64,000 nucleotides of DNA from Clostridia bacterium (GCA_017614315.1 JAGACA010000007.1:68433-132432); one strand, 5' to 3'; shown: positions 5,497 to 43,069, counted from the first letter of the stretch. Numbers and translations: made by a program. The notes: generated by a model from the sequence alone, not told the origin.

Positions 5497-5498
5497 GA

Positions 5499-6092: not shown

Positions 6093-6110
6093 GTCAACAC
6101 CTCCAATATA

Positions 6111-6122: not shown

Positions 6123-6135
6123 CATTTGCGTGGTT

Positions 6136-6185
6136 ATTATACACAGCTGCAAAACCGGAGTCAATAGTATTTCGAACAAATTTTC
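6136..6185 (-). promoter_or_regulatory. Promoter of lexA-like operon with overlapping Cheo-box-like site
   Basis: On the minus strand: TTGACT (6159-6164), 17 nt spacer, TATAAT (6136-6141). GAAAATTTGTTC (6174-6185) differs at one position from GAAC-N4-GTTC. Confidence 0.6.
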
Positions 6186-6276
6186 TTTATAGCACGATAG
6201 AGTCGATTTCTGGCGACAATACAATGGTTCTGTTGTTCCAATTACCGACTTTTCTCTTCCATTTTCGCAGGCGATA

Positions 6277-6285
6277 TGTTATAAT
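6277..6285 (+). promoter_or_regulatory. Extended -10 (TGTTATAAT) upstream of WYL regulator 1
   Basis: TGnTATAAT match 39 nt upstream of the ATG at 6324. The -35 is weak. Confidence 0.45.
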
Positions 6286-6323
6286 AACAATTGGCGTAAT
6301 CTATCCGACGGGAAGGAGCAAGT

Positions 6324-7301: not shown

Positions 7302-7351
7302 ATTGAGTAACATGCAAGAAATATAGTAATATTGAAAGAAGAGAGTGTGTC

Positions 7352-8488
7352 ATGAGTGAAGTAAAAAAGCTTCGTGTCTTTGAGGCATTTGCAGGTATTG
7401 GGGCCCAGGCCTCAGCTTTAGAGCGGCTTGGGATCAATTATGAAATTGTAGGAATTAGCGACTGGTTTATTGACGCAATTGAATGTTATGCAGCTATTCA
7501 CTGTGAGAATGTCGAAGTGGATGTTCCCCAGGATATTAAACTCGTCGAAGAATACCTTAATCAGTTTACGTTTAGTGCTACGTCTATTAGGCCAACTAAC
7601 TTAAAGATTCTATCTGAAGATCAAAAACGCGATTTATACAGGGCAAATAAAAAAGCAAATAACTACGGGTCCATAACTGAATTAAAGGGCGCGGATATGC
7701 CATTAACAGATTTGCTTGTTTACAGTTTTCCTTGTCAGGACCTTTCAACAGGTGGACTAGGGAAAGGCATGAAAAAAGGCTCCGGTACACACTCCGGACT
7801 GCTTTGGGAGATTGAAAGGATTTTAAAAGAGCTTTCAGCTCTTAATAGATTACCGGAATATCTATTGCTTGAGAACGTGAAGACTATTAAAGCAGATAAG
7901 AACAAAGAAGATCTTGAACAATGGTTGGGGTTTTTGAACTCAATAGGGTACTCAAACAGTAATTGCATGATTCTAAATGCATTGGATTTTGGAGTGCCCC
8001 AGGATCGCGAAAGAGCATTTATTGTCAGCCATTTAGGAGAGGTCCTAAATGTTAAAGAGAAAATCGAATCCAAAAAGAAAGAGCGACAGTACAATATTCA
8101 CGATTTCATAATGGATGATTATCAAAACCCAACTTACAAGCGGGAAGCAAACATCGCGCAACTAAATAAAACTCCCTCGAGAGATGTAATGTGGGAGATT
8201 AACGGAAAAGAGATAAACGACAACACAATAATCAGAACCATAACGTGCAATATGGATCGGACACATACTGCAGCTTTGTTCGAATACACCGGCCCAAAGG
8301 GGAAGACTTACCGAAGACTAACGCTTCGTGAAGCCTTCCTGTTAATGGGGTTCACTGCTGATGAATACGAAAAAGCAGCATCTCTTGGATATAGTTACCG
8401 TAAGCTTAATAAGTTAATCGGCAACTCTATTGTTGTGAACGTGCTGGAAGCTGTATTTGATTCAATGTTCGGTGATAAGTATAAATAA
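7352..8488 (+). CDS. dcm: DNA (cytosine-5) methyltransferase
   Basis: 378 aa. Motif I FAGIGAQ, motif IV PCQDLS, motif VI ENV, motif VIII QDRERAF, motif X GNSIVV. Confidence 0.95.
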   Translation: MSEVKKLRVFEAFAGIGAQASALERLGINYEIVGISDWFIDAIECYAAIHCENVEVDVPQDIKLVEEYLNQFTFSATSIRPTNLKILSEDQKRDLYRANKKANNYGSITELKGADMPLTDLLVYSFPCQDLSTGGLGKGMKKGSGTHSGLLWEIERILKELSALNRLPEYLLLENVKTIKADKNKEDLEQWLGFLNSIGYSNSNCMILNALDFGVPQDRERAFIVSHLGEVLNVKEKIESKKKERQYNIHDFIMDDYQNPTYKREANIAQLNKTPSRDVMWEINGKEINDNTIIRTITCNMDRTHTAALFEYTGPKGKTYRRLTLREAFLLMGFTADEYEKAASLGYSYRKLNKLIGNSIVVNVLEAVFDSMFGDKYK

Positions 8489-8569
8489 CTTTCAGACGAA
8501 AGATGTAACGAACCTAGGCAGAGTGATAAACAAAAAAGCAGGTTTGCACCGCTTGGAAAGGTAACAAAA

Positions 8570-10033
8570 ATGGGTGAATTAGTTGAAAAACATTTCCCGG
8601 CAAAAGCGTTGCTTACGGGGCTAAGGGCTATCGGGTATAACTTTTCAACTGCTGTTGCGGATATTATAGACAACAGCGTCTCGGCCCAAGCGAATACCGT
8701 TAGAATCTATTCTGATCCTCTTGCAACTATTCCGTATTTCTGCATTCTTGATAACGGAAACGGAATGAGTTTTGCTGAACTTAACAACGCAATGCTTCCA
8801 GGATCAGATAGAACGGGCAAAGAGGACTGCGAGCTTGAGCTCGGCAGGTTTGGTCTTGGCTTAAAATCTGCTTCTCTTTCTCAGTGTCGAGAGTTTATCG
8901 TAGCTAGTAAGAAATATGGCAAAATCAATGCAATGTCATTTGACTTAGACGAGATAGAAAACAGCAACAAGCTCGTCCTATCAGTGCTGGATAAAAATGA
9001 GATCGCCGAACTGCCATATATTGCTGAACTGCGCGAGTACTATAGCGGAACATTAGTAGTTTGGGAAAAGTTTGATAAAATTGAATCCAGCTCTAAGAGT
9101 TTCGAAGATAGCTTTAGGAGCGCTGTTGCCGAAGCAAAAAAACACGTAGAATTCGTATTTCATAGGTTCTACGATGATCTTGAAATCTACTTCAATAACA
9201 AACGAATCGAGCGAAGAGATCCGTTTTTGCTTGGTTCATTCGGACGTCAGCAAACGGGCAGAACAACAAGGATCAGTATTGGAGAATCTATTATTACGGT
9301 AACACCATACACTTTGCCGTTTGCAAACACGCTGACATCCGAGGAAAAAGCACTGCTAGGCAATCCGAAGAGCATATATGACGAGCAAGGGTTTTACATC
9401 TATCGGAACAAAAGGCTTATCTCTTGGGGCAATTGGATGAGGATGGGCATACGCAGTGAGCTGAATAAGCTGGCCAGGATTCAGGTTGATATTCCATCGT
9501 CCTTAGATGAAGTATGGACTTTAGATGTTAAAAAGTCCTCTGCAAAAATTCCTGATATCATAAAGAACCAGATAAAAGCTGCCGTTGAGGATTCGGTAAT
9601 TAGAAGCAGAAGGACAACGCGTTTCCCGGGCGTAAAGGAACAGATGCCCGAAGTCCAAGTTTGGGACCGTGTTAATTTGCACGAAGGCCAGATTAAATAT
9701 CAGATAAACAGAGAAATGCCCGCTATAGTTGCACTCTCCAATGCCATAGGCGAGAGCGAGAAAGAATTGTTGGAAATAGTGCTGTCGCAAATTGAAAGCT
9801 ATCTTCCTAAGTATCGTATTAATAACGATAATATGGATGCATTAACCATTGTTAATTCTGGAGAAGACGTCGAAGACGAGCGACTGATAAGCGAGATAGA
9901 AACCATCATTGCCTTCTTTGATAGCGAAACGAGAAAGAGTGTCTTCGAAAACATTTTCATGGCAGAAAACTATCAGAGACTATTACCCAGGAAAGAAGAA
10001 ATTAAGAGGAGGATTTTTGGAAATGACAACTGA
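8570..10033 (+). CDS. MutL/MORC-like GHKL (HATPase_c_3-type) ATPase
   Basis: 487 aa. Bergerat-fold motifs VADIIDNSVSA (N box), ILDNGNGMS (G1) and GRFGLGLKSAS (G2). Confidence 0.85.
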   Translation: MGELVEKHFPAKALLTGLRAIGYNFSTAVADIIDNSVSAQANTVRIYSDPLATIPYFCILDNGNGMSFAELNNAMLPGSDRTGKEDCELELGRFGLGLKSASLSQCREFIVASKKYGKINAMSFDLDEIENSNKLVLSVLDKNEIAELPYIAELREYYSGTLVVWEKFDKIESSSKSFEDSFRSAVAEAKKHVEFVFHRFYDDLEIYFNNKRIERRDPFLLGSFGRQQTGRTTRISIGESIITVTPYTLPFANTLTSEEKALLGNPKSIYDEQGFYIYRNKRLISWGNWMRMGIRSELNKLARIQVDIPSSLDEVWTLDVKKSSAKIPDIIKNQIKAAVEDSVIRSRRTTRFPGVKEQMPEVQVWDRVNLHEGQIKYQINREMPAIVALSNAIGESEKELLEIVLSQIESYLPKYRINNDNMDALTIVNSGEDVEDERLISEIETIIAFFDSETRKSVFENIFMAENYQRLLPRKEEIKRRIFGNDN

Positions 10034-12809
10034 GAAATATCAAGTAGCAGTTAATACGCTTTATACTGTACTATACGGTGCGATTCAGGGTAAACGGATT
10101 CCGCACAACGATGTCGTTCAGACTGCGAAGGCTCTTTTTCCGATAGTGCTTCCTAATTTGGTTGCAACGGAAGAACACAATCCTATTGTAAAAGCGGTTG
10201 TCAGCCGTTACGAGAGCGAAGTCGGAATTATAACATACGATCCTGAGTTCATTGATATTGACCGAGAAGCAAAGTATTGGCTATACAAGGAAAAAGAGCG
10301 TATTCAACATCCGTTTTTTGACAGATACAAGCTCTATCTGTCAAACAACGGATTTGAACCTAAGGTGATAACAAATATTGAAACTACTTGTGAACAGATT
10401 CTGGCAAGATGCGCAAACCCAAAGACTACAGCTTTGTCAGAAAAGAAAAAAGGCCTAGTTGTTGGAGATGTTCAATCGGGAAAAACAGCCAACTATCTTG
10501 GCTTAATTAATATGGCGTATGACTACGGGTACCGCATAGTTGTTCTTTTAGCGGGAACAACCAATTCTCTTCGCGAACAGACACAAAAACGTACAGACAG
10601 CGGAGTGATTGGCGCAAGAAGTGAAACTATCGGCAATACAATTGAATTTATAGGTGTTGGTCTAAATACCAACGAACACTTTGCTGTGCCGTTCACAAAT
10701 CAGATTAATGATTTCAAAAAATTTGTTCAAAAGAATTATAATGTTGCAATTGCAGACATAAATAAACCGGTCGTATTGGTCGTTAAGAAGGTTAAGAGCG
10801 TTCTGGAAAGTGTAGCCGAAAGACTTCAATATGAATTGAGCGATAAAGGTTTGGATTGCAAAAGCATTTTGATTATTGATGACGAGGCAGATAATGCTTC
10901 TATCTCGACAGCAAAAGATCCGGACAAGCCTACGGCTATTAATCGATGCATTCGTGATATTTTCAACAAATTCCCGATTGCATCGTATGTTGGGTATACA
11001 GCAACGCCGTTTGCTAATATTTTTATCAATCCCAAAGACGACGAAAGCTATTTGGACTTATTCCCGAGCGATTTTATAGCTCAGCTTCATGCACCGAGCA
11101 CATACTTTGGCGGAAGGCTTGTCTTTCCGGCTGACGGAACCCGTTCTAGGTATGTAAGATTAATTTCTGAGAGCGAAGATAATTTTCTTCCGGTTGTTCA
11201 CGATAAATATGTGCAATACCCTGCCATGGCAAAAAGCTTGGTTGAGGCTATAAATTCGTTTGTTATCTGCAATGTTATAAGAACACTTCGCGGCCAGGGA
11301 CTAAAGCATCGTAGCATGATGATTAATATCACAAGGTATAACGATACACAGGCTCTTATTTGGGAGAGAGTAAATGAGTATCTTGAAAAACTCAAAAATG
11401 CTATTGAGCAGTTAAGTGATATGCCGGTTGCCGAATTCATCAAGAACCGTTACTGCAATGCTCTTTACGAACTATACACTAAAGATGAGTTTTTTAAAAT
11501 CATTCGTGAAGGAAATAGCGAAGAAGCAGAAGGGCCAATCCCTTGGGAACAGATTCAGAGCGGGTTGTATGATGAAATCAAAAAAATCATTGTGGTTGTA
11601 ATCAACTCAAGAAATGGACAAATGAATAACCTTGACCCTTCAGGGAGTAAAAAACGCTTTGACTATGATGACAAAAAGGATGAAGGAGCCAGGGTTATTG
11701 CGATCGGAGGCATGGTGCTTTCTAGAGGCCTTACTCTTGAGGGGCTGATGATTAGCTACTATAGCAGACATGCCGGGGCATACGATACGCTTCTCCAGAT
11801 GTGCCGTTGGTTCGGATATAGGCCAAGGTATATGGACTTATGCCGTATTTATCTGTCTCAAATCAGCATAGACCAGTTTGATGCAGTTTTATCCGCCACG
11901 GAGGATTTAAAAACGCAATTTGGAGAAATGAAGTTGCGCGATAAGAAGCCTAGTGACTTCGGCATTATGATCAAAGAATGCCCTGACACTCTTGAAACAA
12001 CGTTGCTCATAACAAGCAGAAACAAAATGCGCGGAACGGAGACTTTTGTCCGCAGTCTCAATTACAGCGGTGTCTATGCTGATACATCGAAATTGGATAA
12101 AGATCCTGCTGTGAATAAGCATAACATTGAGGCTTTCCGAAGATTCTGCAAAAATGTCGAATTCAAGTGGGTGAGCAAGGATGGTAATCCAAACTCACAT
12201 CGGTACTACATGGCACAAAAAGTGTCTCAGCATTACATTGCCCAACTGTTTAAAGATATACGTATACCAATAGAAAATAAAAAATTTAATACTGCAGGAC
12301 TTGCGGAGTATACAGAGGATAGTGACAAGTACCCCTGGTGGGACGTCGTAATTGCAAATGGAAGTCAAAAAGATGGAAAGCAGTTTATGGACGTTTATCC
12401 GGTCGTTCGTAGTTTTCATACTAGAAGCGAGACAGATTTTATTCGAATCGGTGGATCAAACAACCGAGTCCTCGATCCTGGACAGTTAAATGCAGGGCTA
12501 TGGTACAAAGAAGGAGAAGCACTATCAGCAAAGGAATACTTAAAGCACCGCAGAACGCCTATTCTTGTAGTGTTTCCCATAGCACTTAATGAAGTAAGTC
12601 AAGAAGACACGGAAGATGAAACGATTTATAAAGCAAAGGCAAAGGCTGCTTTCGAAGGGGAAGTGCTACTTGCGTTCTCATATGCCTTTCCCGATACAGA
12701 AACAAAAGTTATGGTGACATATAGAGCAAATGCTGTGATGATAGATCAGATGATAAAAGGAATTGAAACTGACGATGAAGACGAAGGAGTTGAAGACACA
12801 GATGATTGA
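10023..12809 (+). CDS. Z1-domain P-loop NTPase (helicase-like)
   Basis: Start re-set to the ATG at 10023 (AGAGGAGGA upstream; overlaps the upstream stop). Walker A GDVQSGKTANY and Walker B ILIIDDEADNAS. Size and position match Z1 proteins of Dcm-linked operons. Confidence 0.75.
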   Translation: MTTEKYQVAVNTLYTVLYGAIQGKRIPHNDVVQTAKALFPIVLPNLVATEEHNPIVKAVVSRYESEVGIITYDPEFIDIDREAKYWLYKEKERIQHPFFDRYKLYLSNNGFEPKVITNIETTCEQILARCANPKTTALSEKKKGLVVGDVQSGKTANYLGLINMAYDYGYRIVVLLAGTTNSLREQTQKRTDSGVIGARSETIGNTIEFIGVGLNTNEHFAVPFTNQINDFKKFVQKNYNVAIADINKPVVLVVKKVKSVLESVAERLQYELSDKGLDCKSILIIDDEADNASISTAKDPDKPTAINRCIRDIFNKFPIASYVGYTATPFANIFINPKDDESYLDLFPSDFIAQLHAPSTYFGGRLVFPADGTRSRYVRLISESEDNFLPVVHDKYVQYPAMAKSLVEAINSFVICNVIRTLRGQGLKHRSMMINITRYNDTQALIWERVNEYLEKLKNAIEQLSDMPVAEFIKNRYCNALYELYTKDEFFKIIREGNSEEAEGPIPWEQIQSGLYDEIKKIIVVVINSRNGQMNNLDPSGSKKRFDYDDKKDEGARVIAIGGMVLSRGLTLEGLMISYYSRHAGAYDTLLQMCRWFGYRPRYMDLCRIYLSQISIDQFDAVLSATEDLKTQFGEMKLRDKKPSDFGIMIKECPDTLETTLLITSRNKMRGTETFVRSLNYSGVYADTSKLDKDPAVNKHNIEAFRRFCKNVEFKWVSKDGNPNSHRYYMAQKVSQHYIAQLFKDIRIPIENKKFNTAGLAEYTEDSDKYPWWDVVIANGSQKDGKQFMDVYPVVRSFHTRSETDFIRIGGSNNRVLDPGQLNAGLWYKEGEALSAKEYLKHRRTPILVVFPIALNEVSQEDTEDETIYKAKAKAAFEGEVLLAFSYAFPDTETKVMVTYRANAVMIDQMIKGIETDDEDEGVEDTDD

Positions 12810-13734
12810 TTTTAGCGAGATATATAACAAGTTTTGCGATCAGCAGCATGGTAATCAAAAGAAAGTCCCGGTGGATTCGTGTATAGAAGTTTTCTTTGGA
12901 TTTAGTTTCGAAGGGAATCTTCGTCTTTCTTTCATGTCGAAAGGCGACTGCCCTATGATGGAGTCCACATCAATACTCCATGTGGTCCAGGGAAGAGAGG
13001 GTAAAGACTCCTATTGGACTTCTTTCGATCTTCTTAACGGGGAACTAAAAGAAGCATACTTCAGCTTTTGCGAAAACATGATTGACTCTATTGTTGAAAT
13101 CCGCGACGAGTCCTTGGCACTAAATATGCTGAGGAGACGATTTATCACATGGAAAAAGCTTTTCCAAAAGGTCTCCGGTGGAGATATTTCAAAGGAAAAG
13201 CTTATGGGTATTTTCGGTGAGCTTGCAGTGCTAAAGGAGATTATTTCTAAAAAGTATGGCGTTGACACGGCGATACAAGCATGGGGCGGACCCAAAATGC
13301 AAAGTAAAGACTTCACCGTGGGAGATACATGGTATGAGGTAAAAACTATAGGAGCAAATGCAGACAGTATTCGCATCTCTTCACTCGCTCAACTATCTTC
13401 CCCAAATAACGGACATTTAGTTGTGGTCCGTGCTGAGGCCGTATCTCCTGAGGCAGGAGGGACAAGCTTAGCGATCATTGATTTAGTTAAAGAGATCTTG
13501 CTATTGGTATCCAGTGAGAGTATAGAAAATGATTTCATAAGAAAAATCCAGGGCATGGGGATCGATGTATACGGAAAGGAGATTAACTCAAGGTTCGATA
13601 TAAAGTCGATTAAATCATACTCGGTTGCAGAAGAATTCCCTAGAATCACAGTAGATAATGTTCCGTTTCCGGAAATTACGGATGTGAACTATGTGTTAAG
13701 TGTGGCATCCATTTACAGATTTATAGAGGAGTAA
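12802..13734 (+). CDS. PD-(D/E)XK motif protein
   Basis: Start re-set to the ATG at 12802 (GAAGGAG upstream; 8-nt overlap with the Z1 stop). Candidate nuclease core IFGELAVLKE ... KDFTVGDTWYEVKT. Confidence 0.6.
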   Translation: MIDFSEIYNKFCDQQHGNQKKVPVDSCIEVFFGFSFEGNLRLSFMSKGDCPMMESTSILHVVQGREGKDSYWTSFDLLNGELKEAYFSFCENMIDSIVEIRDESLALNMLRRRFITWKKLFQKVSGGDISKEKLMGIFGELAVLKEIISKKYGVDTAIQAWGGPKMQSKDFTVGDTWYEVKTIGANADSIRISSLAQLSSPNNGHLVVVRAEAVSPEAGGTSLAIIDLVKEILLLVSSESIENDFIRKIQGMGIDVYGKEINSRFDIKSIKSYSVAEEFPRITVDNVPFPEITDVNYVLSVASIYRFIEE

Positions 13735-13737
13735 AGA

Positions 13738-15828
13738 ATGGACATCCTTGAGTTTCGCGAAAGTTATATAAATGAGGATATCAATGCAGAGGCAGTAAAC
13801 ACTATGCGGTATCCGGTTGAGGTGTTTATTGACAATGCAGCAGATATCCTTAAAAACGATTACTCTCTCATTACTGACATGAGTCAGTGCTTCTTTTCCT
13901 TTAGTAAAGGAACAAGGGCATATAAGAATATGCATATTGATGCTGCATATTTAGATCTTGCGTCAAATGCTCTTGACTTGCTCTGCGCAGATTATAATGA
14001 GGGAGAGATCACGAATATAACCAATGAGATTCTTGGAAATAAATCTCAGCTTCTGCTGAATTTCTTTGAGAATTCATTAAAGGGGTTCTTTGTATCTGCT
14101 GAACAGGCTGATCCTGCAGTACAGCTTGCACGAGATATTCGAAACAATTATAAAGACATTCATACAATACATCTGTTTGTAGTTAGCACTAACAGGCTAA
14201 GTAAAAGCGTTAAAAATCTTGACTTTCCAGATTATACCTTTAAAGAGCACACATTTAAGGTGACGCTTGATGTTCTTGATATTGAAGGAATATATAGATC
14301 TAAACTGGCCGGATTTGAAAAAGAAAAGATTGTAATTAATTGTAACGAATTTGGCATCCGAGGGATCCCATGTATTAAGGCAGATATTGGAACCGACCAA
14401 TATGAGTCTTATTTGGCCATTGTACCGGGCTCTTTCCTCTCAGAGATCTATAAAAAGTATAGCTCTGCGCTTCTTGAATCAAACGTCCGCTCGTTCCTTA
14501 AGTTTAACGGGGCAGTCAACAAGGGCATTCGTGGGACAATACTAAATGAAAAATCAAGGTTCTTTACATACAATAACGGGATATCGACTACTGCAAGAGG
14601 TGTAACCATTGTTTCGGACCCGATATGCGGCAACATGATAACGGCGTTTGACGATCTTCAAATAATAAACGGGGGCCAGACAACCGCAACATTGGCGGCG
14701 ACCAACATAAAGAATAATGCAGACTTAGAGGGCATATATGTTCAGATGAAACTTACCGTCCTAAAAGATTCTGATCCTGAATTAATAAGGAATATCGCTA
14801 AGTATGCGAACAGTCAGAATAAGGTAAAAACCGCAGATTTGAACTCTAGTCATCCGTTCTATGTGCGAATGGAAGACTTCTCCAGAAAGATTTATGCGCC
14901 TCTGGCAAGCGGAAGTTTGGTTCAGCAGCTCTGGTTCTTTGAACGTACCCGTGGGCAATATGAGCAGCCGCTTATGCAAATGACGAAAGCACAGGCGAAC
15001 AACTATAAACTCACAAGGCCTAAGAATATGCGTTTTACGCTGACAGATTTGGCTAAATACATTAATGCAGCAAACATGCTGCCTCATTACGTATCTTGGG
15101 GCGGAGAGGTCAATGCTGCCCATTTCCATAACGACATGGAAAAACAATGGAATAAGAGTAACGAGGTCTTTAATGAGCTTTTCTATAAAGAGTTAATAGG
15201 AAAAAAGATCCTGTTTTCCAGAATCGAAACGGTGATTTCCAGTCAACAGTGGTACCAGGAAAATAGGGCATACCGTCCCCAAATTGTTGCGTATACGTTT
15301 TCAAAACTCGTGTTGTCTGCAAAAACAATACACAAAGAGATAAACTATAGACAGATATGGGACCTTCAGAAAGTTCCAACAGAATTTGACGAGGACATCG
15401 CAAAAATAGGCAAGATTGTATTCGACAAAATTAACGATCCTTACCGGTCAACAGCAAATGTTGAAACATACTGTAAAAAAACTGAATGCTGGGATATCGT
15501 ATCCAAGGTTCCGTATTCAATAACGGATGACCTAAGAGAGATCTTAATTTCTCCGAGTGAGAAAACCGCTGAAAAAATGGCGGCAAAAAAGGAACAAGCT
15601 TTTGATAATGGACTCATGAACGAAATAGAGATATTCAACAAAGGAGAGGAGGGCTGGTCGTCTCTGATTGACAGAGGGCAGGCACAGTATGTACTTAACA
15701 GCGCCGATGTATTTGCCTTAACGGATGCTATTAAATACTGTAAGATGCAGTATACGCAGTTGACCAACAAACAGATTAAGGCAATAATGGATGCGGTCAA
15801 AAAACTAAAAGAAAACGGCATAGAATAG
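13738..15828 (+). CDS. AIPR (abortive-infection phage-resistance) family protein
   Basis: 696 aa. Has the IINGGQTTATL motif characteristic of AIPR proteins. AGAGGAG RBS. Starts 3 nt after the upstream stop. Confidence 0.75.
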   Translation: MDILEFRESYINEDINAEAVNTMRYPVEVFIDNAADILKNDYSLITDMSQCFFSFSKGTRAYKNMHIDAAYLDLASNALDLLCADYNEGEITNITNEILGNKSQLLLNFFENSLKGFFVSAEQADPAVQLARDIRNNYKDIHTIHLFVVSTNRLSKSVKNLDFPDYTFKEHTFKVTLDVLDIEGIYRSKLAGFEKEKIVINCNEFGIRGIPCIKADIGTDQYESYLAIVPGSFLSEIYKKYSSALLESNVRSFLKFNGAVNKGIRGTILNEKSRFFTYNNGISTTARGVTIVSDPICGNMITAFDDLQIINGGQTTATLAATNIKNNADLEGIYVQMKLTVLKDSDPELIRNIAKYANSQNKVKTADLNSSHPFYVRMEDFSRKIYAPLASGSLVQQLWFFERTRGQYEQPLMQMTKAQANNYKLTRPKNMRFTLTDLAKYINAANMLPHYVSWGGEVNAAHFHNDMEKQWNKSNEVFNELFYKELIGKKILFSRIETVISSQQWYQENRAYRPQIVAYTFSKLVLSAKTIHKEINYRQIWDLQKVPTEFDEDIAKIGKIVFDKINDPYRSTANVETYCKKTECWDIVSKVPYSITDDLREILISPSEKTAEKMAAKKEQAFDNGLMNEIEIFNKGEEGWSSLIDRGQAQYVLNSADVFALTDAIKYCKMQYTQLTNKQIKAIMDAVKKLKENGIE

Positions 15829-15841
15829 AGGAACAGTCATT

Positions 15842-16258
15842 GTGGACAACCGTTCAAAAGAAGCAAGAAGCAGAAATATGGCACATATTCCCAGCAAAGG
15901 TACAAAACCCGAGGAATATGTGCGGAAGTACCTTTTTAGCAAGGGATTCAGATACAGAAAAAACGTAGCTGCTTTGCCGGGTAAACCTGATATCTTACTG
16001 CCAAAATACAAAGCGGCGGTATTCATCAACGGCTGTTTTTGGCATTGTCACGAGGGATGCAGTTGGTTCGTTCCTCCAAAGACAAATACCGATTTCTGGA
16101 ACGCGAAGTTTAAATATAACATCGAGCGTGACAGAAAAAACTACGCAAGACTTGAAGAGATGGGATGGCGTGTCCTAATAATCTGGGAATGCGAGATTAG
16201 ACACGGGGACCCTGTTGATGCTGTTGAAAAGCTAATTAATGAGATAAAAGGAGAATGA
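15842..16258 (+). CDS. vsr: Very-short-patch repair endonuclease
   Basis: 138 aa with a GTG start. RSRNMAHI, LPGKPDI, NGCFWHCH and GWRVLIIWECE align with E. coli Vsr motifs. Confidence 0.9.
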   Translation: MDNRSKEARSRNMAHIPSKGTKPEEYVRKYLFSKGFRYRKNVAALPGKPDILLPKYKAAVFINGCFWHCHEGCSWFVPPKTNTDFWNAKFKYNIERDRKNYARLEEMGWRVLIIWECEIRHGDPVDAVEKLINEIKGE

Positions 16259-16259
16259 A

Positions 16260-17570
16260 ATGAAAATTGGGCAGATATATAGAGCGTCAAACAGAACAGA
16301 AAAGCAGGATCCGTCCTTGCTAGAAGTTGATGGCTTCCCGAACTTTTACTATCACACCTATCTTGCGAATAACGCAAAGATACAGTTTCAGCGCGGTGTG
16401 CATTCAATCGGAAAAGTGATTACAAAAGACGGGAATGAACGTATTCCCGCGATTATTGTTTCAAGTAGCCCTCATAGATATGGCAGCGAATCCACACCGT
16501 GGGAAGATATTTACGATCCGGACTTTGGCAGGGTGAGATACTATGGCGATAATAAATCGAACGACAAGCGCCCAGAAGAGAAACAGGGAAACAAGGCATT
16601 GCTGAAAGCCTTTAGAATCCAATCTTCTCCTGATCCAATTTTACGAAAGAAAGAGGCGGTACCGATTCTTTTCTTTGAAAGGACTGCGGTTCAGACTGAG
16701 AATGGCAAAGCAAAAAAGGGATACTTAAAGTTCCACGGATACGGTATTATCGAAGCCGTAGAGTTAATAACACAGTACGATGTTAAAACGCAAGACGGTT
16801 ATTTTTCAAACTACGTGTTTGATATGTGCGTCTTTTCGTTGACCGGTGATAACGAAGAATTCCCTTGGCTGTGGATTAATGCGAGAAGGGATCCGAATCT
16901 TTCAGATGAAGACACGTTAAAGTATGCACCATCCGCGTGGAAAAGTTGGGTGAACAATGGTGAGTACAGTAAAGTAAGGAGGCATGTCTTCTCTTCTGCA
17001 ATTGCGAAACCAAAGGATCAACAACCGGATTCCGGAAGCAAAGAAGAGGAAATCCTTAAAACGGTTTATGAGTATTTTAGTGATAGGGACAGGCACTGCT
17101 TTGAACTCCTTGCAATGAAAGTTACACAGGAAGTATTCCGAATGTCCGGCGCAAATTTTATGCCAGGCTGGGTAACGCAGCAATCAGGTGACGGAGGAAT
17201 AGATTTTGTTGCTAGAAGCGATATCGGGCAAGGACTGGCAAAAATCAAAACAATCATAATCGGACAGGCAAAATGCGAGAGCATTACCACACCGACAAAC
17301 GGCATTGGCATCGCGCGTACCGTCTCCCGTCTTAAGCGGGGATGGATAGGTGTATATGTAACTACATCTTATTTTTCAGTGGCAGTTCAAAAAGAAGTGC
17401 TTGACGATCAAAGCCCAATAATGCTTGTTAATGGGCTTCAAGTGGTTAAAGCAATTCAATCGATTATCTACAGAGAAGGAATAACTGTCCAGGATTTACT
17501 CAATAACATAGAAAAAGAGTATCCGACTACATGTAAAAACAGAAGGCCGGAAGAGATATTGTTTGAATAA
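16260..17570 (+). CDS. Two-domain restriction protein: N-terminal SRA(YDG)-like reader candidate plus C-terminal Mrr-cat PD-(D/E)XK nuclease
   Basis: 436 aa. The start lies 1 nt after the vsr stop (ATGAAATG). C-terminus has GDGGIDFVARSD...IIGQAKC...GVYVTTSYFS (Mrr catalytic core). In the N-terminus, the order GVHSIG, AIIVSSS, RYYGDNK, QGNKALL, VPILFFER, YLKFHGYGIIEAV parallels SRA-domain blocks. This N-terminal call is by eye only. Confidence 0.6.
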   Translation: MKIGQIYRASNRTEKQDPSLLEVDGFPNFYYHTYLANNAKIQFQRGVHSIGKVITKDGNERIPAIIVSSSPHRYGSESTPWEDIYDPDFGRVRYYGDNKSNDKRPEEKQGNKALLKAFRIQSSPDPILRKKEAVPILFFERTAVQTENGKAKKGYLKFHGYGIIEAVELITQYDVKTQDGYFSNYVFDMCVFSLTGDNEEFPWLWINARRDPNLSDEDTLKYAPSAWKSWVNNGEYSKVRRHVFSSAIAKPKDQQPDSGSKEEEILKTVYEYFSDRDRHCFELLAMKVTQEVFRMSGANFMPGWVTQQSGDGGIDFVARSDIGQGLAKIKTIIIGQAKCESITTPTNGIGIARTVSRLKRGWIGVYVTTSYFSVAVQKEVLDDQSPIMLVNGLQVVKAIQSIIYREGITVQDLLNNIEKEYPTTCKNRRPEEILFE

Positions 17571-17585
17571 ATCTATGCAAGCATC

Positions 17586-17786
17586 TCATCGTCTCGATGG
17601 TTTCACATTATCATCCGGGCTGATACTGCCTTCGATTGTGCCGTGCTCTTTCTCGAAGTCCTTGATCGCGTTGCGCACAAGCACAAGGATATGGCTGTTC
17701 ACGGAACGACCTTCATAGTCCGCGATATAGGCGATCTTCTTTAGCATCTCATCCTCAATACGAATAGACACACTCTTAACGGCCAT
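17586..17786 (-). CDS. Ribbon-helix-helix (CopG/Arc-like) DNA-binding protein
   Basis: First ATG at 17786 (AAAGGAGA upstream). MAVKSVSIRIEDEMLKKIAYIADYEGRSVNSHILVLVRNAI fits the RHH beta-alpha-alpha pattern. Confidence 0.7.
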   Translation of the reverse strand: MAVKSVSIRIEDEMLKKIAYIADYEGRSVNSHILVLVRNAIKDFEKEHGTIEGSISPDDNVKPSRR

Positions 17787-17840
17787 GATCAAATCTCCTT
17801 TTAAATGGCTGTATGGTGTGTTTATTTTATGTCTGCCGCG

Positions 17841-17877
17841 TGTTATAATGTCTGAAATAGATATACAGTATATCTAT
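17841..17877 (+). promoter_or_regulatory. Extended -10 promoter plus 21-bp perfect palindrome operator
   Basis: TGTTATAAT at 17841-17849. ATAGATATACAGTATATCTAT at 17857-17877 is a perfect dyad. It lies between the divergent RHH and SLOG genes. Confidence 0.6.
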
Positions 17878-17896
17878 AACAATTCGGAGAGATGAT

Positions 17897-18316
17897 ATGA
17901 TCGTAACATTCTGCGGGCACAGGGAAGTGCAGGAGCCGGAAAAGGTTCGGAAGTGGCTCCTTGAAACGGTTGAAAGGCTAATCATGGAAGGAGCAGACTG
18001 TTTCTATCTCGGTGGATACGGCCAGTTCGATACCATAGCTGCGGACGTCATTCGGGAGCTAAAGCAAAAATACAAGCACATCAAATCAGTGCTTGTATTG
18101 CCGTACATCGATAGGGAATATGATTCGAGCGGATACGATGAATCGATCTATCCTCCGCTTGAAATTGTTCCGAGGCGATATGCCATCTCAAAACGAAATG
18201 AGTACATGGTCGATAATGCCGACATCGTTATTGCGTATGTCATTTTCAGCTTCGGAGGAGCATATTCATCCTTATGCTACTCTGAAAGGAAAAGGAAGCG
18301 CATTATTCGTTATTAG
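17897..18316 (+). CDS. SLOG/DUF1273-like protein
   Basis: 139 aa. MIVTFCGHRE...FYLGGYGQFDTIAADV...ISKRNEYMVDNADIVIAYV matches the DUF1273 (SLOG superfamily) pattern common on Firmicutes mobile elements. Confidence 0.6.
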   Translation: MIVTFCGHREVQEPEKVRKWLLETVERLIMEGADCFYLGGYGQFDTIAADVIRELKQKYKHIKSVLVLPYIDREYDSSGYDESIYPPLEIVPRRYAISKRNEYMVDNADIVIAYVIFSFGGAYSSLCYSERKRKRIIRY

Positions 18317-18995
18317 TCTCAGTACGATCCTTCTTTTGCTTACGAGCCGCTTTCTTCAAATAATGGTTTTCCCATGTGTACTTATCCATCAAGAATGGAT
18401 ATTTGCCACCGATGATCTCATCTTCTGAAAGCTCATAATACACCTTTTGATTATTCAAGACATCATAAAGCCACCATTTTGCACAGGGGCAAGGGAACAT
18501 TATGAATATGTTCTTGAACCTATTTGTATTGATGTAATCTATTCTTATTTCCTCGAAAAGTTCAGCTCTTCTTGAATCAAGGATTGAGGAAAGATAAGAG
18601 CCGGAATAATCGGAAAGCCAATTGGTCAATTCGAGCGGAAACAGAATGCATAGATGCACATTCGGGACACAATACGCCTTTTTCGCTTTTTCTTCGAGTC
18701 TATGTTTTATATAGATAATCGCATCGCGTTCAACATCATCCGAGTTATAAGTGCCTTCTTTTAGCCTTTGAATGAAACTGTCAAGCTTCTTCTTGTCTGA
18801 TGCAATTGTGAATTCGATAGGAATGCTATCGCAAAAGTAATCGGGCTCCTTCTTATTAGGATCACCTTGATTCCATTCTTTGCCTTCCAGAAAATACGAA
18901 AGAAGCCTTTGAATGAAAGGCTCGTTTATCTCTTTGTTAAAAAACCCATGCGGAAAATACGCTATTTTCGATGATGGTGTCTTAGGTTTACACAT
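18303..18995 (-). CDS. Hypothetical protein (230 aa), last gene of the 4-gene operon
   Basis: Long ORF with no motif I recognise and no obvious RBS at the annotated ATG. Its 3' end overlaps the convergent SLOG gene by 14 nt. Confidence 0.45.
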   Translation of the reverse strand: MCKPKTPSSKIAYFPHGFFNKEINEPFIQRLLSYFLEGKEWNQGDPNKKEPDYFCDSIPIEFTIASDKKKLDSFIQRLKEGTYNSDDVERDAIIYIKHRLEEKAKKAYCVPNVHLCILFPLELTNWLSDYSGSYLSSILDSRRAELFEEIRIDYINTNRFKNIFIMFPCPCAKWWLYDVLNNQKVYYELSEDEIIGGKYPFLMDKYTWENHYLKKAARKQKKDRTETNNE

Positions 18996-19028
18996 AATTG
19001 ACTAATTGATTTTGCTCGTTTAGTATGG

Positions 19029-19508
19029 TTAGTTGTTCCTGATACCGATTTCCCATTTGCTAATGGGGTGATCTGCTTTTATGCGGTCCTGGGAAGAAAT
19101 ACGTTTATCTTCTTCAAGTAACTTGTTAAGCGTGCGAGAATACCAGCCGTTCTTTGTCCGCTTGCAATCCTTCAACCAATCACAAGGACCGTTGTAAACT
19201 TCAAATACAGAACCATCTTGTTTCCGCAGAAAAAGGACCAATAGATGTTCGGGAATATCGTTAATATCGACAGAGTTCCCTTGAGTTATTTTTATTTGAA
19301 CTTTCTTTCCGTCTTTTACGCCATCATAAGTCTTGGTGTTGTTGGGGGCAAGATCAACGCCATAGTAATAATTGGCTAGTGCCTCGCCTATGCTTCCAAG
19401 CAAATGACCATCCAGCGTAAATTTTCTTCCGGGGAAGCGTTCTTCGAAGTCGCGTACAATTTCCAGTAATTCGGATACCTTTTGTATTATGTAATCATAA
19501 TTTCCCAT
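19029..19508 (-). CDS. Hypothetical protein (159 aa) with possible restriction-endonuclease-like D..E..QxK core
   Basis: FTLDGHLLGSIGEALANYYYG ... DGKKVQIKITQG resembles small PD-(D/E)XK-like domains. Weak call, by eye only. Confidence 0.45.
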   Translation of the reverse strand: MGNYDYIIQKVSELLEIVRDFEERFPGRKFTLDGHLLGSIGEALANYYYGVDLAPNNTKTYDGVKDGKKVQIKITQGNSVDINDIPEHLLVLFLRKQDGSVFEVYNGPCDWLKDCKRTKNGWYSRTLNKLLEEDKRISSQDRIKADHPISKWEIGIRNN

Positions 19509-19543
19509 ATTCGAACAGATTCCTTCTCATACGTTTATAATTC

Positions 19544-20491
19544 TCATCTGGTAGTAATAGAGTTTGCTATCTCGATAATATTTGCAAAATCCGTCAGCTC
19601 TTTTATTGCATCAAAACATTGAGCCAGTTCGTCTTTGTCAACAAATTCAAAGCCTTTCATAATGCTCAGCTTCGGAACATGAATGCGGATTATTGCGGAT
19701 TTTGTGGCCTTCACAACAGTTGCATTCGAGATCTTATGCTGTCTTGCCCATTCCGCAATTACCTTTGCACGATCGATTTTGTCCGAGGCCTTCGGGAATG
19801 TCAGATCCACATATCCTTCCTGGATCTTATGATTGATATAAACATACCCGAGATCCGTGCGGAAGTCAGTCCACCATCCGTTCTTGTCCTCCTTTGTGCT
19901 GAGATCCAATGAAGGATAGTATTCCTTCTGATAACGGATGTACTGCCTCAGGAAGGCATTGGCCTTTTCGTCGATATTGATAACAGGAGGCTTCTTTGCT
20001 TTGGATATTGCTTCTTCTATCTGTCTGGCACGGAATGCACTCAGCGGATCGGCTTTGATGTCAAAATACGCTTTACATTCCTCATAAGTCAAAAGGTGCT
20101 CATAAAGCTTTGCTTCATCATTGTTCTTGTAGTACTTCTCGGGACAGAATATGAAAACCCTGAAATCTTTGTATTCGCCAGCCTTTACTCCTTTTTTTCC
20201 GCGCTTAATGTATCTGCCGTGCTGCTCGGGCATTGCCAGCGCATCGATCTTATCTTCGATCAGCAGCCCGTATTTGTTTCCCTCGATCTCGATAACAACG
20301 GTAATATCGGACTCGCCAAGATTACTGTCGGTTTTTGACAGTTCTGCGCAAACGATCTGAAAGGGCTTTCCCTTCAAATCTGTTTTTTCGACCAATAAAT
20401 TGCAAAACCCGGGATCGGTCAATACTGATTCCGCAAACAGGAGATCCATATCCCTTTCGGTTATAGTGTTGTTGAACTTTAGCGAGATCAT
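19544..20491 (-). CDS. PD-(D/E)XK nuclease superfamily protein
   Basis: Start re-set to the ATG at 20491 (GGAGAG 8 nt upstream). ERDMDLLFAE ... DITVVIEIEGNKYGLLIEDKIDALAMPEQHGRY follows the E..D..(I/L)E(D/N)K..A....Q..RY pattern of this family. Confidence 0.7.
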   Translation of the reverse strand: MISLKFNNTITERDMDLLFAESVLTDPGFCNLLVEKTDLKGKPFQIVCAELSKTDSNLGESDITVVIEIEGNKYGLLIEDKIDALAMPEQHGRYIKRGKKGVKAGEYKDFRVFIFCPEKYYKNNDEAKLYEHLLTYEECKAYFDIKADPLSAFRARQIEEAISKAKKPPVINIDEKANAFLRQYIRYQKEYYPSLDLSTKEDKNGWWTDFRTDLGYVYINHKIQEGYVDLTFPKASDKIDRAKVIAEWARQHKISNATVVKATKSAIIRIHVPKLSIMKGFEFVDKDELAQCFDAIKELTDFANIIEIANSITTR

Positions 20492-20516
20492 TATTTCACT
20501 CTCCATCGTATTGTTT

Positions 20517-20801
20517 CTATACTTCAAATCTTTCAATGACAGTGTCTTTCACATAGATCGGCTTAAGTTCCTTTAACCGACCGAAGTGCTCCGTTGCGGC
20601 GTGCGCGGTAAGGGCACCTTCGTCCCGCCACTTTTCAACAAGAAGGAGCTCGTCGCTGCCGTCAAAGGGGATGTAATAATCGTACTTGATATTCCCATCT
20701 TCTGCGCGGGAGGCCTTGTCGATGCCCTCGGCGATTATCCTTTCAAGGAAATCCTCGCGCATATCCGGCTTGCACCTGTAAGTAACGTTCAATACTATCA
20801 T
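20517..20801 (-). CDS. ABM (antibiotic-biosynthesis-monooxygenase-like) small ferredoxin-fold protein
   Basis: 94 aa. MIVLNVTYRCKPDMREDFLE...LLLVEKWRDEGALTAHAATEHF is the typical ABM-domain pattern. Strong RBS GGGAGGA. Confidence 0.7.
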   Translation of the reverse strand: MIVLNVTYRCKPDMREDFLERIIAEGIDKASRAEDGNIKYDYYIPFDGSDELLLVEKWRDEGALTAHAATEHFGRLKELKPIYVKDTVIERFEV

Positions 20802-20930: not shown

Positions 20931-23900
20931 TTACTTCGCACTCGTGGCGAGTTCTGCGGTAATCGAGAACTCTTTCTTGCAAAGCACAGAGAAGGAATCG
21001 CTTATCTCTCCATCAACGATAAAGTTGTCGAGGATGATTATCTCCGGTTCTGCGTCGAATACATTGCCGACATAATAGATGCGATACGAATTAGGATTGT
21101 CCATTGCGGTTCTGTATTCGTTATCGCTGAGCTGGAAACGTATTCCCTCAAATACTGACGTCTTAGATGCTTTGACCTCGATCAGGAACCTGTTGCCGTC
21201 TTTATCAAATACTTCAAAGTCGTATCCGAGACCAGCCTTGCCTTCCGGACATACCTTTGCTTTCTTGGCGTTCTCCGAAAGCCAATTAACCCTTTCATAT
21301 TCACCTGACTTTTTAAGCTCATCGTAAACGAGTTGCTCACCCTTCAATCCGGTTCGCTCATTCTCTTTGGAGCTTTCCTTTTTTATGAACCCGACCTTGC
21401 GGCCTCCAGAACTGGACGACGCTGAGAGCGGGGCCGCTGTTATAGGAACACCGGTGAGCATCCTAATTGTCTGATTTTGCGGTTCCTCTATTGGCGCCTC
21501 TTCCTTCACATGACTCTTCAGCAATTCTGAATAACGCTTGTTTAACTCACCGAATTCGCCATAATAAACCAAGCTCACATTTTCCTGCTCTGTAAGGAAT
21601 TCTTCCAATGCAGACTTGTCTTCCAACTTAGATTCCCATGCATCCAGATTCGCATTGTACAGAGAGACAAGGTTTACCGGCTCCGCTTCAAAGTTTATCC
21701 CAAGAGCTTTTTCTATTGCTTCATCCATGTCGAAATAGACTGTGTTCTCTACGGGTATGCGTATACTCCTAAAACCAGTAAGTGCCTTAACGAGGGTTTT
21801 CTTATCCTGCAAGGATCCTTTCTCTAATCTCCTAAAGCAAGAAACCTTATACTGATCTTCAAGTCTTGCCTTTCTTCGATCCACTTCTTCCTCGTAATAG
21901 GGACACAGATTAATCCTCTCAGACGGGATCTCCGCGTTATAATCGCTGACATCTACCCCGAGCGTCTTGAATAGACGAATAATGCTGCGTGCATTTGCAA
22001 TGCTGGAGAAGTCATCAAAATCCAACGCATCAGCGACAGATTTTTCTGCCGAGCAATCTCTGCCAGTTATTGTTGAAACGATCCGGACAAACTCTTCCTG
22101 AAGATCCTCGCTGAAATCCAGCGCTTCTTTAGCTCTAACGATTATTGATCTGCTTTCGATATCTTGAAGCAGTAGTTCCTCTCTGTCTTTGTTGTTGCCG
22201 AGGTTGAATAGCTCACGGAATTTCGACAATGACGAGGAAATATCAAGATTAGAGCAGAGAATATTCGCAATTGCCGATGCCAATGCCAAATTATGCCCCA
22301 TATTCCTTGAGACCGAGAAATCCTCCGGCACTTTTAAATATACATCGTGGTTTTCCCCTGTTATAAACTCATAGTCGTATAGTTCATAGACGCTTCCATC
22401 AAAACTCGATCTGAGCTCGGAACAGATCGTTATCGAAATATTGCTGATTTTTCTTGCCTCATCCTTGACATCAGAATCAGCTTTTATATCCGCCAACCTA
22501 TATGCAAATGCGAGCGGTACGAACCTCCTATACTCAAGGCTGAATTGGTCGTTTTCGGGATGTACTACCGGTGTTCCATATAGTTCTTCGTGAACTTCAA
22601 GTCGCTTCACACCAAGGTATTTTTCTACGACTTTTGCGCTTCTTCTGCTTGGAACACTCAACACATTGCACGATTCCAAAATACGCCTGCTAACGTTCTT
22701 TTCCGGCAAGTATCGTGCTTCACTCACAGGATAATAGCCATCGTCACATAAGACTTTACCTTCAGCAAAGAACCGGCCTCTCTCTTTGCACTGATCAATT
22801 TCAGAGTAAGTTTCATTGCTTGTAACAAACGCCTCGTACATTCTTGCAGCAATGCGCTCTGAATTCTCTTTATCAGGAAGCAGCATCAATACAGAATAAA
22901 TTGTATCAAGTGGCAATTCGGGGAATCCCCCTTCTCCGTATCCTTTTTTTACCCCCATGCTTTGCAATACCGAAGAGTACTTCTTTTTTTGATCACGCGG
23001 GTTCCCCTTAACGTTCTTTATGTAATCTGACACATTTGGGCTGACCAATATAGGGGAAAGGTCGCAGTCGCTTTCTAAATCAAGCATACAATTGCCCGGC
23101 AAGTATCGTTGACCGTTTGCTTCAATCCACGGAGTTGTGATAAAGCAATCATACAAATATGAGTAAGGCTCCGTAAGTTCTGGAAGCGTAACAGGCTCTC
23201 TCTTCCTGTCCCAAAGAATCTGAACTGCGTCCTTAACCGCAACCACGTCTTTTTTTGTAGATAGGATTTCTCTAAGCTTTGAATCGCTTAGAATCCACTC
23301 TATTATTGTTTCTGTTGAGCACTCATTAAGAATAATTGTCAGCTCATCGATTTCGTATCTATAAATCGCTATGCTGGTGAGTCGATACAACAAGTCATCT
23401 AAAGACTTAAACCTGTCCTTTCCGACAGGGAGGGGAAAATGTAGCTTTTCAAGCACCCTCTTTATGTACTCTTCTCTAAATCGATTATGCCGCCAATGCT
23501 TGTTAATGTAGATTCGAGGAAGCGCGGCAACACCAAATATGCCAAGGAAACGAATTATACTTTTGGCATCGATTCCCGTCGGTAAAATGTCCTTTATGTC
23601 AGATATAAGCAGTTCGGGATGCTTTTCAAACAACCTTTCACAAAGGTCATTACCATACTCTTTACCATAGTAGAGCTTGCTGGAAATAACGAACTCACCC
23701 TTCTTCGTCAGAAACGGAAAAGTTGTCCTGATCTTTTTATCGATAAAACTTCCTTGATTATTCCAAAACCATGCGATCATTCGCTTCCACTTAGTTTTTG
23801 CTTGTGAGGGCTTACTCGTTTTGATAATAGTATCAAAGCTCGTGCGTATGTGTTCAGTTATTCTTTCAAGGTTGAACTTCTTGATATTAAAGCGACTTAA

Positions 23901-26988: not shown

Positions 26989-27022
26989 TAATCTTCCTCC
27001 CTCGATATTAATCGTCATCTGA

Positions 27023-43068: not shown

Positions 43069-43069
43069 A

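Follow-up and report, generated by a model that had tools for sequence, protein, structure and literature searches.

MspJI, a restriction endonuclease of Mycobacterium sp. JLS dependent on 5-methylcytosine (5mC) or 5-hydroxymethylcytosine (5hmC), is encoded at its prototype locus together with a C5 methylase (M.MspJIP), a vsr product (V.MspJIP) and a putative helicase (Zheng et al. 2010, PMC2938202), the last annotated as Mjls0821. The same report found that about half of the MspJI family adjoins predicted 5mC methylases, and flagged this linkage of reader and writer as unusual and in need of further study. M.MspJI was inactive in E. coli, a scenario of evolutionary decay was proposed, and LpnPI presumably leaves the GGNCC sites of the adjacent methylase uncut (PMC2938202). 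In this study, we analyzed a vsr gene and the 436-amino-acid (aa) open reading frame (ORF) that follows it at positions 15842-17570 of a 64,000-nucleotide stretch of a Clostridia bacterium genome (GCA_017614315.1, JAGACA010000007.1:68433-132432; hereafter the window). Judged by homology, the ORF very likely encodes a modification-dependent member of the MspJI family, and it stands at the 3' end of a string of seven genes for a Dcm-type methylase, a MORC-type ATPase, a Z1 protein, a DUF4420 protein, an AIPR protein, Vsr and the nuclease.

MspJI cuts 5mC, 5hmC and hemimethylated sites, is blocked by glucosyl-5hmC, is toxic in dcm+ E. coli, and cuts efficiently only when a second site or an activator is present. 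Lys173 in its loop-78 is the determinant of the purine at +3 in the site mCNNR (PMC4231741), and SgeI, which is 49% identical to MspJI, has the same specificity, mCNNR N9/13 (Loenen and Raleigh 2014). Each characterized enzyme of the family needs one or more specific bases beside 5mC, and this requirement defines the methylases compatible with it. According to the compatibility rule, a reader can coexist with any methylase whose site does not include the extra base that the reader requires (Loenen and Raleigh 2014). A methylated CTCGAC strand falls outside the CNNR pattern of MspJI (Anton 2021). The family has more than 1,000 detectable homologues, and pipelines such as PADLOC already label its members. 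The REBASE term for MspJI-type enzymes is Type IIM; they are often loosely called 'type IV'. A 2025 review stated that in vivo action has been explored for no MspJI-family member.

The product of the nuclease gene (16260-17570, + strand) was compared with profiles, sequences and structures. In a Pfam scan (E <= 0.01), it matched only RE_AspBHI_N (PF18062) at aa 40-234 (E 9e-25) and Mrr_cat (PF04471) at aa 288-397 (E 4e-8). The PADLOC model mREase_II ('type II methyl-directed restriction enzyme') covered aa 1-435 with an E-value of 8.6e-154. In a search against solved structures, the best match was MspJI (4F0P, 4F0Q, 4R28; E 2.9e-85, aa 21-434), to which the window protein was much closer than to AspBHI (E 1e-15) or the LpnPI N-domain (E 7e-3). 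Identity to MspJI was 38% over 409 aligned positions, being higher in the C-domain (44%) than in the N-domain (33%). An AlphaFold2 model of the monomer (pLDDT 86) was then compared with the PDB by Foldseek. MspJI was again the top match (E 2.7e-46, TM 0.66), and next came AspBHI and the recognition domain of LpnPI (3e-8); mouse UHRF1 SRA in complex with hemimethylated DNA (3FDE; 2.7e-3, probability 0.99) and the SRA-HNH enzyme TagI (6GHS; 6e-3) were also matched. The protein thus combines full-length collinear homology to MspJI, an SRA-like domain with a 5mC pocket, the motif D-X20-(Q/E)AK and the loop-78 Lys, all of which place it in the MspJI family.

The original prediction, made from the DNA alone, had described a candidate reader-nuclease with an SRA/YDG-type 5mC reader at the N-terminus and an Mrr-type catalytic core at the C-terminus. 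Both domains were read correctly, but the characterized MspJI family was not recognized and the novelty was overrated. The catalytic core is a PD-QxK nuclease that matches Pfam Mrr_cat. For the N-terminal part (aa 1 to about 240, 16260-16979, + strand), the match to PF18062, the fold match and the pocket residues bear out an SRA-like reader, whereas the Pfam profile SAD_SRA was not matched in the scan described above. The structure comparison that had been proposed for this domain was carried out and returned MspJI, AspBHI, LpnPI, the UHRF1 SRA domain and TagI. The N-domain is SRA-like at the level of the fold and not a sequence member of the eukaryotic SRA family. It shares with UHRF1, SUVH5, TagI and ScoA3IV the crescent beta-arch fold in which 5mC is flipped between aromatic residues with an Asp, but identity in structural alignments with SRA/YDG and SRA-HNH enzymes was only 12-14% (14% for 3FDE). 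The nuclease also differs from TagI and ScoA3IV in that its catalytic domain is PD-QxK rather than HNH, and is C-terminal.

The functional residues of MspJI were taken from the MspJI-DNA co-crystal paper (PMC4231741) and mapped through the alignment with 4F0P, and conservation was counted in 77 relatives from different species. In the 5mC-pocket segment (16467-16556, + strand), Ser70, Trp81, Asp83, Tyr94, Tyr95, Asp97 and Lys99 of the window protein are equivalent to S90, W101, D103, Y114, F115, D117 and K119 of MspJI. Trp81, Asp83, Tyr94 and Asp97 were invariant (77/77), and Ser70 was invariant or nearly so. Nine peptide blocks had been singled out earlier, and all were found in the ORF in the order given: GVHSIG (aa 46-51), AIIVSSS (64-70), RYYGDNK (93-99), QGNKALL (109-115), VPILFFER (134-141), YLKFHGYGIIEAV (155-167), GDGGIDFVA (310-318), IIGQAKC (333-339) and VTTSYF (367-372). 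The blocks assigned to the reader do hold pocket residues of MspJI, since AIIVSSS contains Ser70 and RYYGDNK contains Tyr94, Asp97 and Lys99. The catalytic motif Asp315-X20-Gln336-Ala337-Lys338 (17202-17273, + strand), a PD-QxK variant of PD-(D/E)XK, corresponds to D334, Q355, A356 and K357 of MspJI, and Asp315, Gln336 and Lys338 were invariant in all 77 relatives. By homology, the window protein has everything that MspJI uses for flipping and holding 5mC, for reading the purine at +3 and for cutting.

Loop-78, the major-groove specificity loop (16680-16718, + strand), ends in Lys153, the equivalent of MspJI Lys173, and a Lys was kept at this position in 72/77 relatives. In the window protein the loop is 13 residues long, as it is in MspJI itself, whereas it has 9 in 73/77 relatives; among the 78 proteins compared, only the window protein has 13. 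The additional residues are an insertion, QTEN (aa 145-148; 12 nt, 16692-16703), which was absent from all 77 relatives. A near-identical sister cassette, L001, encodes a protein 91% identical to the window nuclease, yet without the insertion. Two substitutions relative to MspJI were noted, Trp92 to His72 and Glu65 to Gln44. The QTEN insertion might alter the sequence context read by the enzyme.

The vsr gene (15842-16258, + strand), which codes for a very-short-patch T:G mismatch endonuclease, encodes 138 aa from a GTG start to a TGA stop at 16256-16258. Its product exceeded the curated cutoff of TIGR00632 (144.9 bits against 97.85), and matched Pfam Vsr (E 3e-29) and E. coli Vsr 1CW0 (E 2e-33), with GKPD, GCFWHCHEGC and WEC aligned. 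We take the Asp of GKPD to be catalytic and the residues of CFWH/C/WEC to be metal ligands, as in E. coli Vsr. With a score above the cutoff and with the catalytic Asp and the metal-binding Cys and His in place, the ORF is by its sequence a genuine Vsr, and both vsr and the 436-aa ORF are real genes and not chance ORFs. The claim that vsr ends 1 nt before the larger ORF was borne out by direct reading of the sequence: a single base, A16259, separates the vsr stop from the ATG at 16260-16262 that opens the 436-codon ORF ending at 17570. The junction reads ATGAAATG at 16255-16262. A GGAG Shine-Dalgarno motif (16250-16253, + strand) lies inside the 3' end of vsr, 6 nt ahead of the nuclease ATG, and by its spacing this layout is typical of translational coupling.

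It was next asked if vsr and the nuclease gene make up a conserved two-gene module. Eighty species-level genome loci were chosen for a relative of MspJI, and their ORFs were searched within 10 kb by iterative profile searches with the proteins of the window. Dcm was found in 37 loci, a GHKL ATPase in 21, vsr in 19, Z1 and DUF4420 in 13 each, and AIPR in 7; in the other 43 loci Dcm was not detected within 10 kb. The linkage of MspJI relatives to Dcm is not due to chance, and 37/80 reproduces the 'about half' of 2010. The linked Dcm genes fall into at least 13 sequence clusters at 40% identity. In only 6 of the 80 loci was vsr the immediately preceding gene on the strand of the nuclease gene; in the five of these other than the window, the gap between vsr and the nuclease gene ranged from -23 to +26 nt. 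The full order Dcm-MORC-Z1-DUF4420-AIPR-(vsr)-MspJI was seen in the four closest Clostridia/Eubacteriales genomes. The same order without vsr was present in a Porticoccaceae genome (L017), and a Bdellovibrionaceae contig (L020) carried DUF4420-AIPR-MspJI. In L003, L004 and L017, the MspJI-like gene came immediately after AIPR, without an intervening vsr.

The reverse test started from 80 metagenome loci selected by a relative of the AIPR protein, and 62 of these loci had at least 1.5 kb of sequence downstream. The B-C-D-E core, corresponding to the genes MzaB to MzaE described below, was found in nearly all 80 loci; 61 loci had Dcm, 33 had vsr, and a recurrent, standard order was M-B-C-D-E-V, with the methylase first and vsr last. 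An MspJI-like gene was found in only one (L082) of the 62 loci with sufficient downstream sequence. Since vsr is present in 33/80 of these loci and the MspJI-like gene in 1/62, vsr is the usual last or accessory gene of the upstream Dcm-MORC-Z1-DUF4420-AIPR system and not a specific partner of the nuclease, whose gene is only rarely found added to the 3' end of MORC/Z1/AIPR cassettes. The two-gene module was rejected on these grounds: vsr is directly upstream in 6/80 loci only, L003, L004 and L017 either lack it or have it at another place, and it is common where an upstream-type system has no MspJI-like gene.

Other arrangements around MspJI relatives were also seen. In six loci from Shewanella, Colwellia, Cocleimonas and their relatives (L025, L029, L031, L033, L034 and L039), the MspJI relative adjoins a Dcm gene of a single cluster and a GHKL ATPase gene; the ATPase ORF is about 1000 aa long where it is complete, and Z1, DUF4420, AIPR and vsr are absent. 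These loci may represent a second methylase-plus-MORC system that recruits the same reader. In L003 (12000-15099) and L004 (11302-13278), another GHKL ATPase gene lies downstream of the MspJI-like gene and on its strand, in L003 with a second Dcm gene before the ATPase, so that the reader sits between two methylase/GHKL-type systems.

The genes upstream of vsr, all on the + strand, were next assigned. The Dcm-type C5-cytosine methyltransferase (7352-8488; PF00145, E 4e-55) belongs to an M.MpeI-like subfamily, with M.MpeI (4DKJ) as the closest solved relative (E 1.5e-45), and it is intact, all of the motifs FAGIG, PCQ, ENV, QDRER and GNS being there. It is followed by a GHKL/MORC-type ATPase (8570-10033; Pfam HATPase_c_3; PADLOC MzaB, 1.5e-59), a DEAD-Z1 helicase-like protein (about 10023-12809; Pfam Z1; MzaC, 6.6e-101), a DUF4420 PD-(D/E)XK protein (12763-13734; Pfam DUF4420; MzaD, 5e-12) and an AIPR protein (13738-15828; Pfam AIPR and AIPR_N; MzaE, 7.8e-61). 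The mechanically called starts of two of these ORFs are probably too far upstream (Z1, TTG 9909; DUF4420, TTG 12763); starts at ATG 10023 (MTTEKYQ...) and ATG 12802 would overlap the preceding stops by 11 and 8 nt, as is typical of coupled genes. Directly 5' of the methylase lies the gene of an HTH-WYL-WCX protein (6324-7301; Pfam WYL, E 2e-12, with weaker WCX and HTH_11 matches; PADLOC WYL, E 3e-24), a candidate regulator of the operon that is collinear with L001.

The original prediction had placed the nuclease in the same operon as a 5mC writer. From the methylase to the nuclease, the genes lie on the same strand with small gaps or overlaps, five closely packed genes preceding vsr; the string of genes was thus verified, and a single transcript is plausible. 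In a consensus-match scan of 6.5-18.5 kb, no internal terminator stood out, the terminator-like sites being mostly within genes. Promoter-like sites in the same interval were fewer than in shuffled sequence, and the scan as a whole is uninformative on a single transcript either way.

MzaB (GHKL), MzaC (Z1), MzaD (DUF4420) and MzaE (AIPR) homologues in one gene string make up an Mza-like, MORC-Z1-AIPR core. Iyer et al. (2008) predicted a restriction-like role for operons in which MORC or paraMORC is combined with an SF2 helicase, a nuclease, Dcm and Vsr, and such MORC-type operons were taken up again by Miller et al. (2022) as a 'type II' system of Z1, DUF4420, methylase, AIPR and MORC. The window genes agree with these systems in the homologues of MzaB to MzaE and in the described associations with Dcm and Vsr, but the descriptions include no MspJI-type reader. 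The validated Mza system also has the sigma-factor-like MzaA (PMC9523054) where the window has a methylase. No MzaA-type gene was found in the operon, which is headed by the WYL regulator and Dcm, with no scan aimed at MzaA; a weak Sigma70_r4 ORF was found at 2658-3248 on the opposite strand. CglI/NgoAVII provides a biochemical precedent for the Z1 motor. A literature search on the mechanism of Mza gave surveys only.

A sister cassette, L001, from a metagenome-assembled Clostridia genome of sheep omasum, was used to examine selection. Homology extended over 6267-17574 of the window and 19-11303 of L001; its right end, 4 nt past the nuclease stop, is a real boundary, while the left start at 6267 is the edge of the L001 stretch compared (10-kb flank). 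For the seven genes from Dcm to the nuclease, dN/dS against L001 ranged from 0.035 to 0.085 (Dcm 0.036, vsr 0.085, nuclease 0.068), showing that all seven are under purifying selection. Writer, repair enzyme and reader are therefore all intact and selected in one mobile unit. Divergence from L001 was a mosaic. The dS values were 0.07-0.13 for MORC, Z1 and DUF4420 and 0.39-0.77 for Dcm, AIPR, vsr and the nuclease, and DNA identity was 96-99% at about 8.5-14.5 kb, about 88% at 14.5-17.5 kb and in the methylase gene, and about 70% in the WYL regulator gene. This mosaic indicates recombination inside the cassette.

By analogy with MspJI, the nuclease would flip 5mC or 5hmC, but not glucosyl-5hmC, into its pocket. 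It would probably act as a tetramer stimulated by a second site, and its site would probably be mCNNR-like, with cuts in both strands about 12/16 nt to the 3' side of the modified base. Its gene probably joined the 3' end of the operon in one small lineage, becoming translationally coupled to vsr, whose product would repair T:G mismatches arising by deamination of the host's own 5mC. The cassette would then have two arms. In the first, the methylase-protected, ATP-dependent MORC/Z1/DUF4420/AIPR system would attack unmethylated DNA; in the second, the MspJI-like enzyme would attack DNA that escapes with 5mC or 5hmC in other contexts, such as that of phages with broad methylases, C-substituted genomes or incoming genes of rival methylases. 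Layered coverage of unmodified and hypermodified invaders, as suggested earlier, is plausible.

A 5mC-dependent nuclease in the same string as an m5C methylase had been presented as a self-targeting paradox. The same paradox was published for the MspJI locus in 2010 (PMC2938202). Two of the escapes offered at that point are unlikely by homology: a need for hemimethylation, since MspJI cuts hemimethylated sites, and a need for glucosyl-5hmC, since this modification blocks MspJI. Most likely, self-cleavage is avoided through the site of the cognate methylase, which would have a pyrimidine in place of the purine required by the reader, or would offer an unsuitable context in some other way, in line with the compatibility rule of the family. 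We lean somewhat towards such context exclusion as the full explanation of the coexistence. To the reading as a whole, that is, an MspJI-type reader added at the 3' end of a two-armed cassette and kept from its own host by context, we give a probability of roughly 80%.

Several points weigh against this reading. The closest solved relative of the methylase, M.MpeI, is a CpG methylase, and with CG methylation half of the sites would be mCGNR and cuttable. The recognition residues of M.MpeI (F302/E305; G322-A323-N324-S325-R326) are not conserved or not reliably alignable in the window methylase, and its loop-2 SGANSR is not conserved, the equivalent stretch, placed by eye, being CNMDRTH; since the recognition loops are not conserved, the comparison points to no specificity of the methylase either way. 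With at least 13 clusters of linked methylases and an almost invariant reader Lys, each pairing would need to achieve exclusion on its own, a strong demand. The 4-aa insertion in the specificity loop is unique, and together with the Gln at the position of Glu65 it may mean that the context preference differs from mCNNR. Operon structure and translational coupling were both deduced from gene spacing, and in vivo defense has been shown for no member of the family. Depletion of k-mers was considered as a proxy that might reveal which site is methylated or restricted. In the 64-kb window, GGCC, CTAG, CCGG and ACGT were under-represented and CpG was not depleted (observed/expected 1.26). The proxy was rejected, as the window mixes an island of 40% GC with flanks of 52-60% GC and these tetramers are commonly avoided.

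The window nuclease resembles MspJI in its full-length plan of an SRA-like N-domain and a D-X20-QAK Mrr-cat C-domain, in the pocket and the Lys173 equivalent, in the length of loop-78, and in a gene placed beside vsr and near a C5-methylase gene. It differs in that identity is only 38%, that the window methylase looks active whereas M.MspJI is thought inactive, and that methylase and vsr lie within a seven-gene string with MORC, Z1, DUF4420 and AIPR. SgeI, FspEI, LpnPI, AspBHI (4OC8), RlaI, SgrTI and PsuGI share the two-domain plan and the modification dependence, and LpnPI is likewise encoded near an active m5C methylase (GGNCC). The other contexts read in the family (CmC, CmCDG and YSmCNS) depend on loops unlike those in the window protein. 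E. coli K-12, with Dcm-Vsr and the nucleases McrA, McrBC and Mrr, also keeps a writer, a repair nuclease and 5mC-dependent nucleases in one cell; they coexist because the Dcm site lacks the context that McrA, McrBC and Mrr need. In K-12, however, the readers are at unlinked loci, whereas the gene of the window reader apparently shares a transcript with the writer gene and is coupled to vsr, within a set that travels as one mobile cassette.

Coexistence could also be achieved by regulation, which we consider unlikely. The enzyme would then be able to cut self-methylated sites and would be kept off until infection by WYL repression, by inhibition through a partner protein, or by dependence on site density or a second site; its activation would cause self-destruction resembling abortive infection as well as an attack on the invader. 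The WYL regulator at the head of the cassette, the AIPR (abortive-infection) protein in the same operon, the need of MspJI for a second site or an activator, and a reader Lys that is invariant across very different methylase pairings would all fit. However, the nuclease seems to share a transcript with the methylase, which presumably must be constitutive for the protective arm, no inhibitor gene is evident, and any leaky expression would carry a cost, given the toxicity of MspJI alone in dcm+ E. coli.

It is improbable, in our estimate, that the reader is wired into the Dcm-MORC-Z1-DUF4420-AIPR system, either cutting DNA marked by the system's own methylase (for example foreign, over-methylated, or methylated out of context) or being held in check until infection. 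Such wiring would explain why an almost invariant reader is paired with at least 13 unrelated Dcm families, and, if true, it would amount to a writer-reader immune circuit on one transcript.

There is little chance that one of the partners is dead, with the methylase inactive, as is thought for M.MspJI, or the nuclease a decaying remnant. The lack of activity of M.MspJI in E. coli and the decay scenario proposed for it would be the precedent. Nevertheless, Dcm, Vsr and the nuclease have retained all of their catalytic motifs, and their low dN/dS values against L001 were maintained despite a dS of 0.5-0.8. Keeping vsr would also make sense only if the host genome carries 5mC. A dead methylase was rejected for the window locus on the basis of motif integrity and dN/dS.

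It is very improbable that the MORC/Z1/AIPR machinery directs the methylase to foreign DNA and that the MspJI-like enzyme reads this mark and cuts as the effector of an integrated system. This would agree with the position of the nuclease gene at the end of the same gene string and with the recurrence of AIPR followed by MspJI in distant phyla (L017, L020). On the other hand, the gene is found in 1/62 AIPR-anchored systems, so the core works without it, 43/80 MspJI relatives have no Dcm nearby, and vsr would imply long-term methylation of the host's own genome. Finally, a conventional type II arrangement, in which the 436-aa protein cuts the unmethylated Dcm site and is blocked by methylation, is hardly credible: the order of methylase and vsr-nuclease resembles a classical restriction-modification locus with vsr, and MspJI was first annotated so, but homology to MspJI is full-length, every 5mC-pocket residue is kept and the characterized members are modification-dependent, the upstream operon already has a predicted nuclease and motor of its own in DUF4420 and Z1, and the lack of a detectable Dcm gene within 10 kb in 43/80 relatives would be lethal with a methylation-blocked enzyme. 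The nuclease, being modification-dependent by homology, does not form a type II restriction-modification pair with the methylase.

The MspJI family, the arrangement of methylase, vsr and nuclease, and the paradox itself were thus already known in 2010. The present analysis adds, modestly, the assignment of vsr to the upstream system, the nuclease as a rare add-on, joint selection, and the loop insertion that sets this copy apart from L001. As an enzyme the nuclease is ordinary, and its residual value is biological. The window locus is a cleaner test case for the linkage of reader and writer than the MspJI prototype, with all three genes intact, apparently on one transcript, in a compact mobile cassette, and the near-identical sister cassette L001, without the loop insertion, adds to this value. 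Enzymes of the MspJI family serve as reagents in epigenomics, so that a useful new context preference could come from a variant whose loop-78 is altered.

Most of the defense island (about 6-27 kb) has a GC content of 40-46%, as against 50-62% elsewhere in the window. Close to the left end is a tyrosine integrase gene (687-1841, - strand), with UmuC/UmuD-like genes adjoining (4210-6224, - strand), and the region looks like an integrative mobile element with a defense island. In the high-GC part, two ORFs of more than 1000 aa each overlap on opposite strands (42977-46306, +; 43070-46363, -); at most one of them is likely real, and the other is probably a high-GC by-product. Downstream of the nuclease gene, and convergent on it, is an ORF resembling an Arc/RHH repressor (17586-17792, -), followed by a YpsA/SLOG-family ORF (17897-18316, +), an ORF without a family match (18303-18995, -), a DUF6998 ORF (19029-19508, -) and a weakly matching PDDEXK_4 nuclease-like ORF (19544-20536, -). 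None of the PADLOC models was matched by these small genes (17586-20536). Beyond them, a protein of 1556 aa (20931-25601, -), with a sacsin/GHKL-like N-terminus and a NOV_C (DUF3883) C-terminus, matched PADLOC TmtA (E 1.7e-266), which we take to be a protein of the Tiamat defense system. Its neighbor on that strand is a second HTH-WYL-WCX regulator gene (25969-27018, -). Two defense systems are thus present in the island, each beside a WYL regulator.

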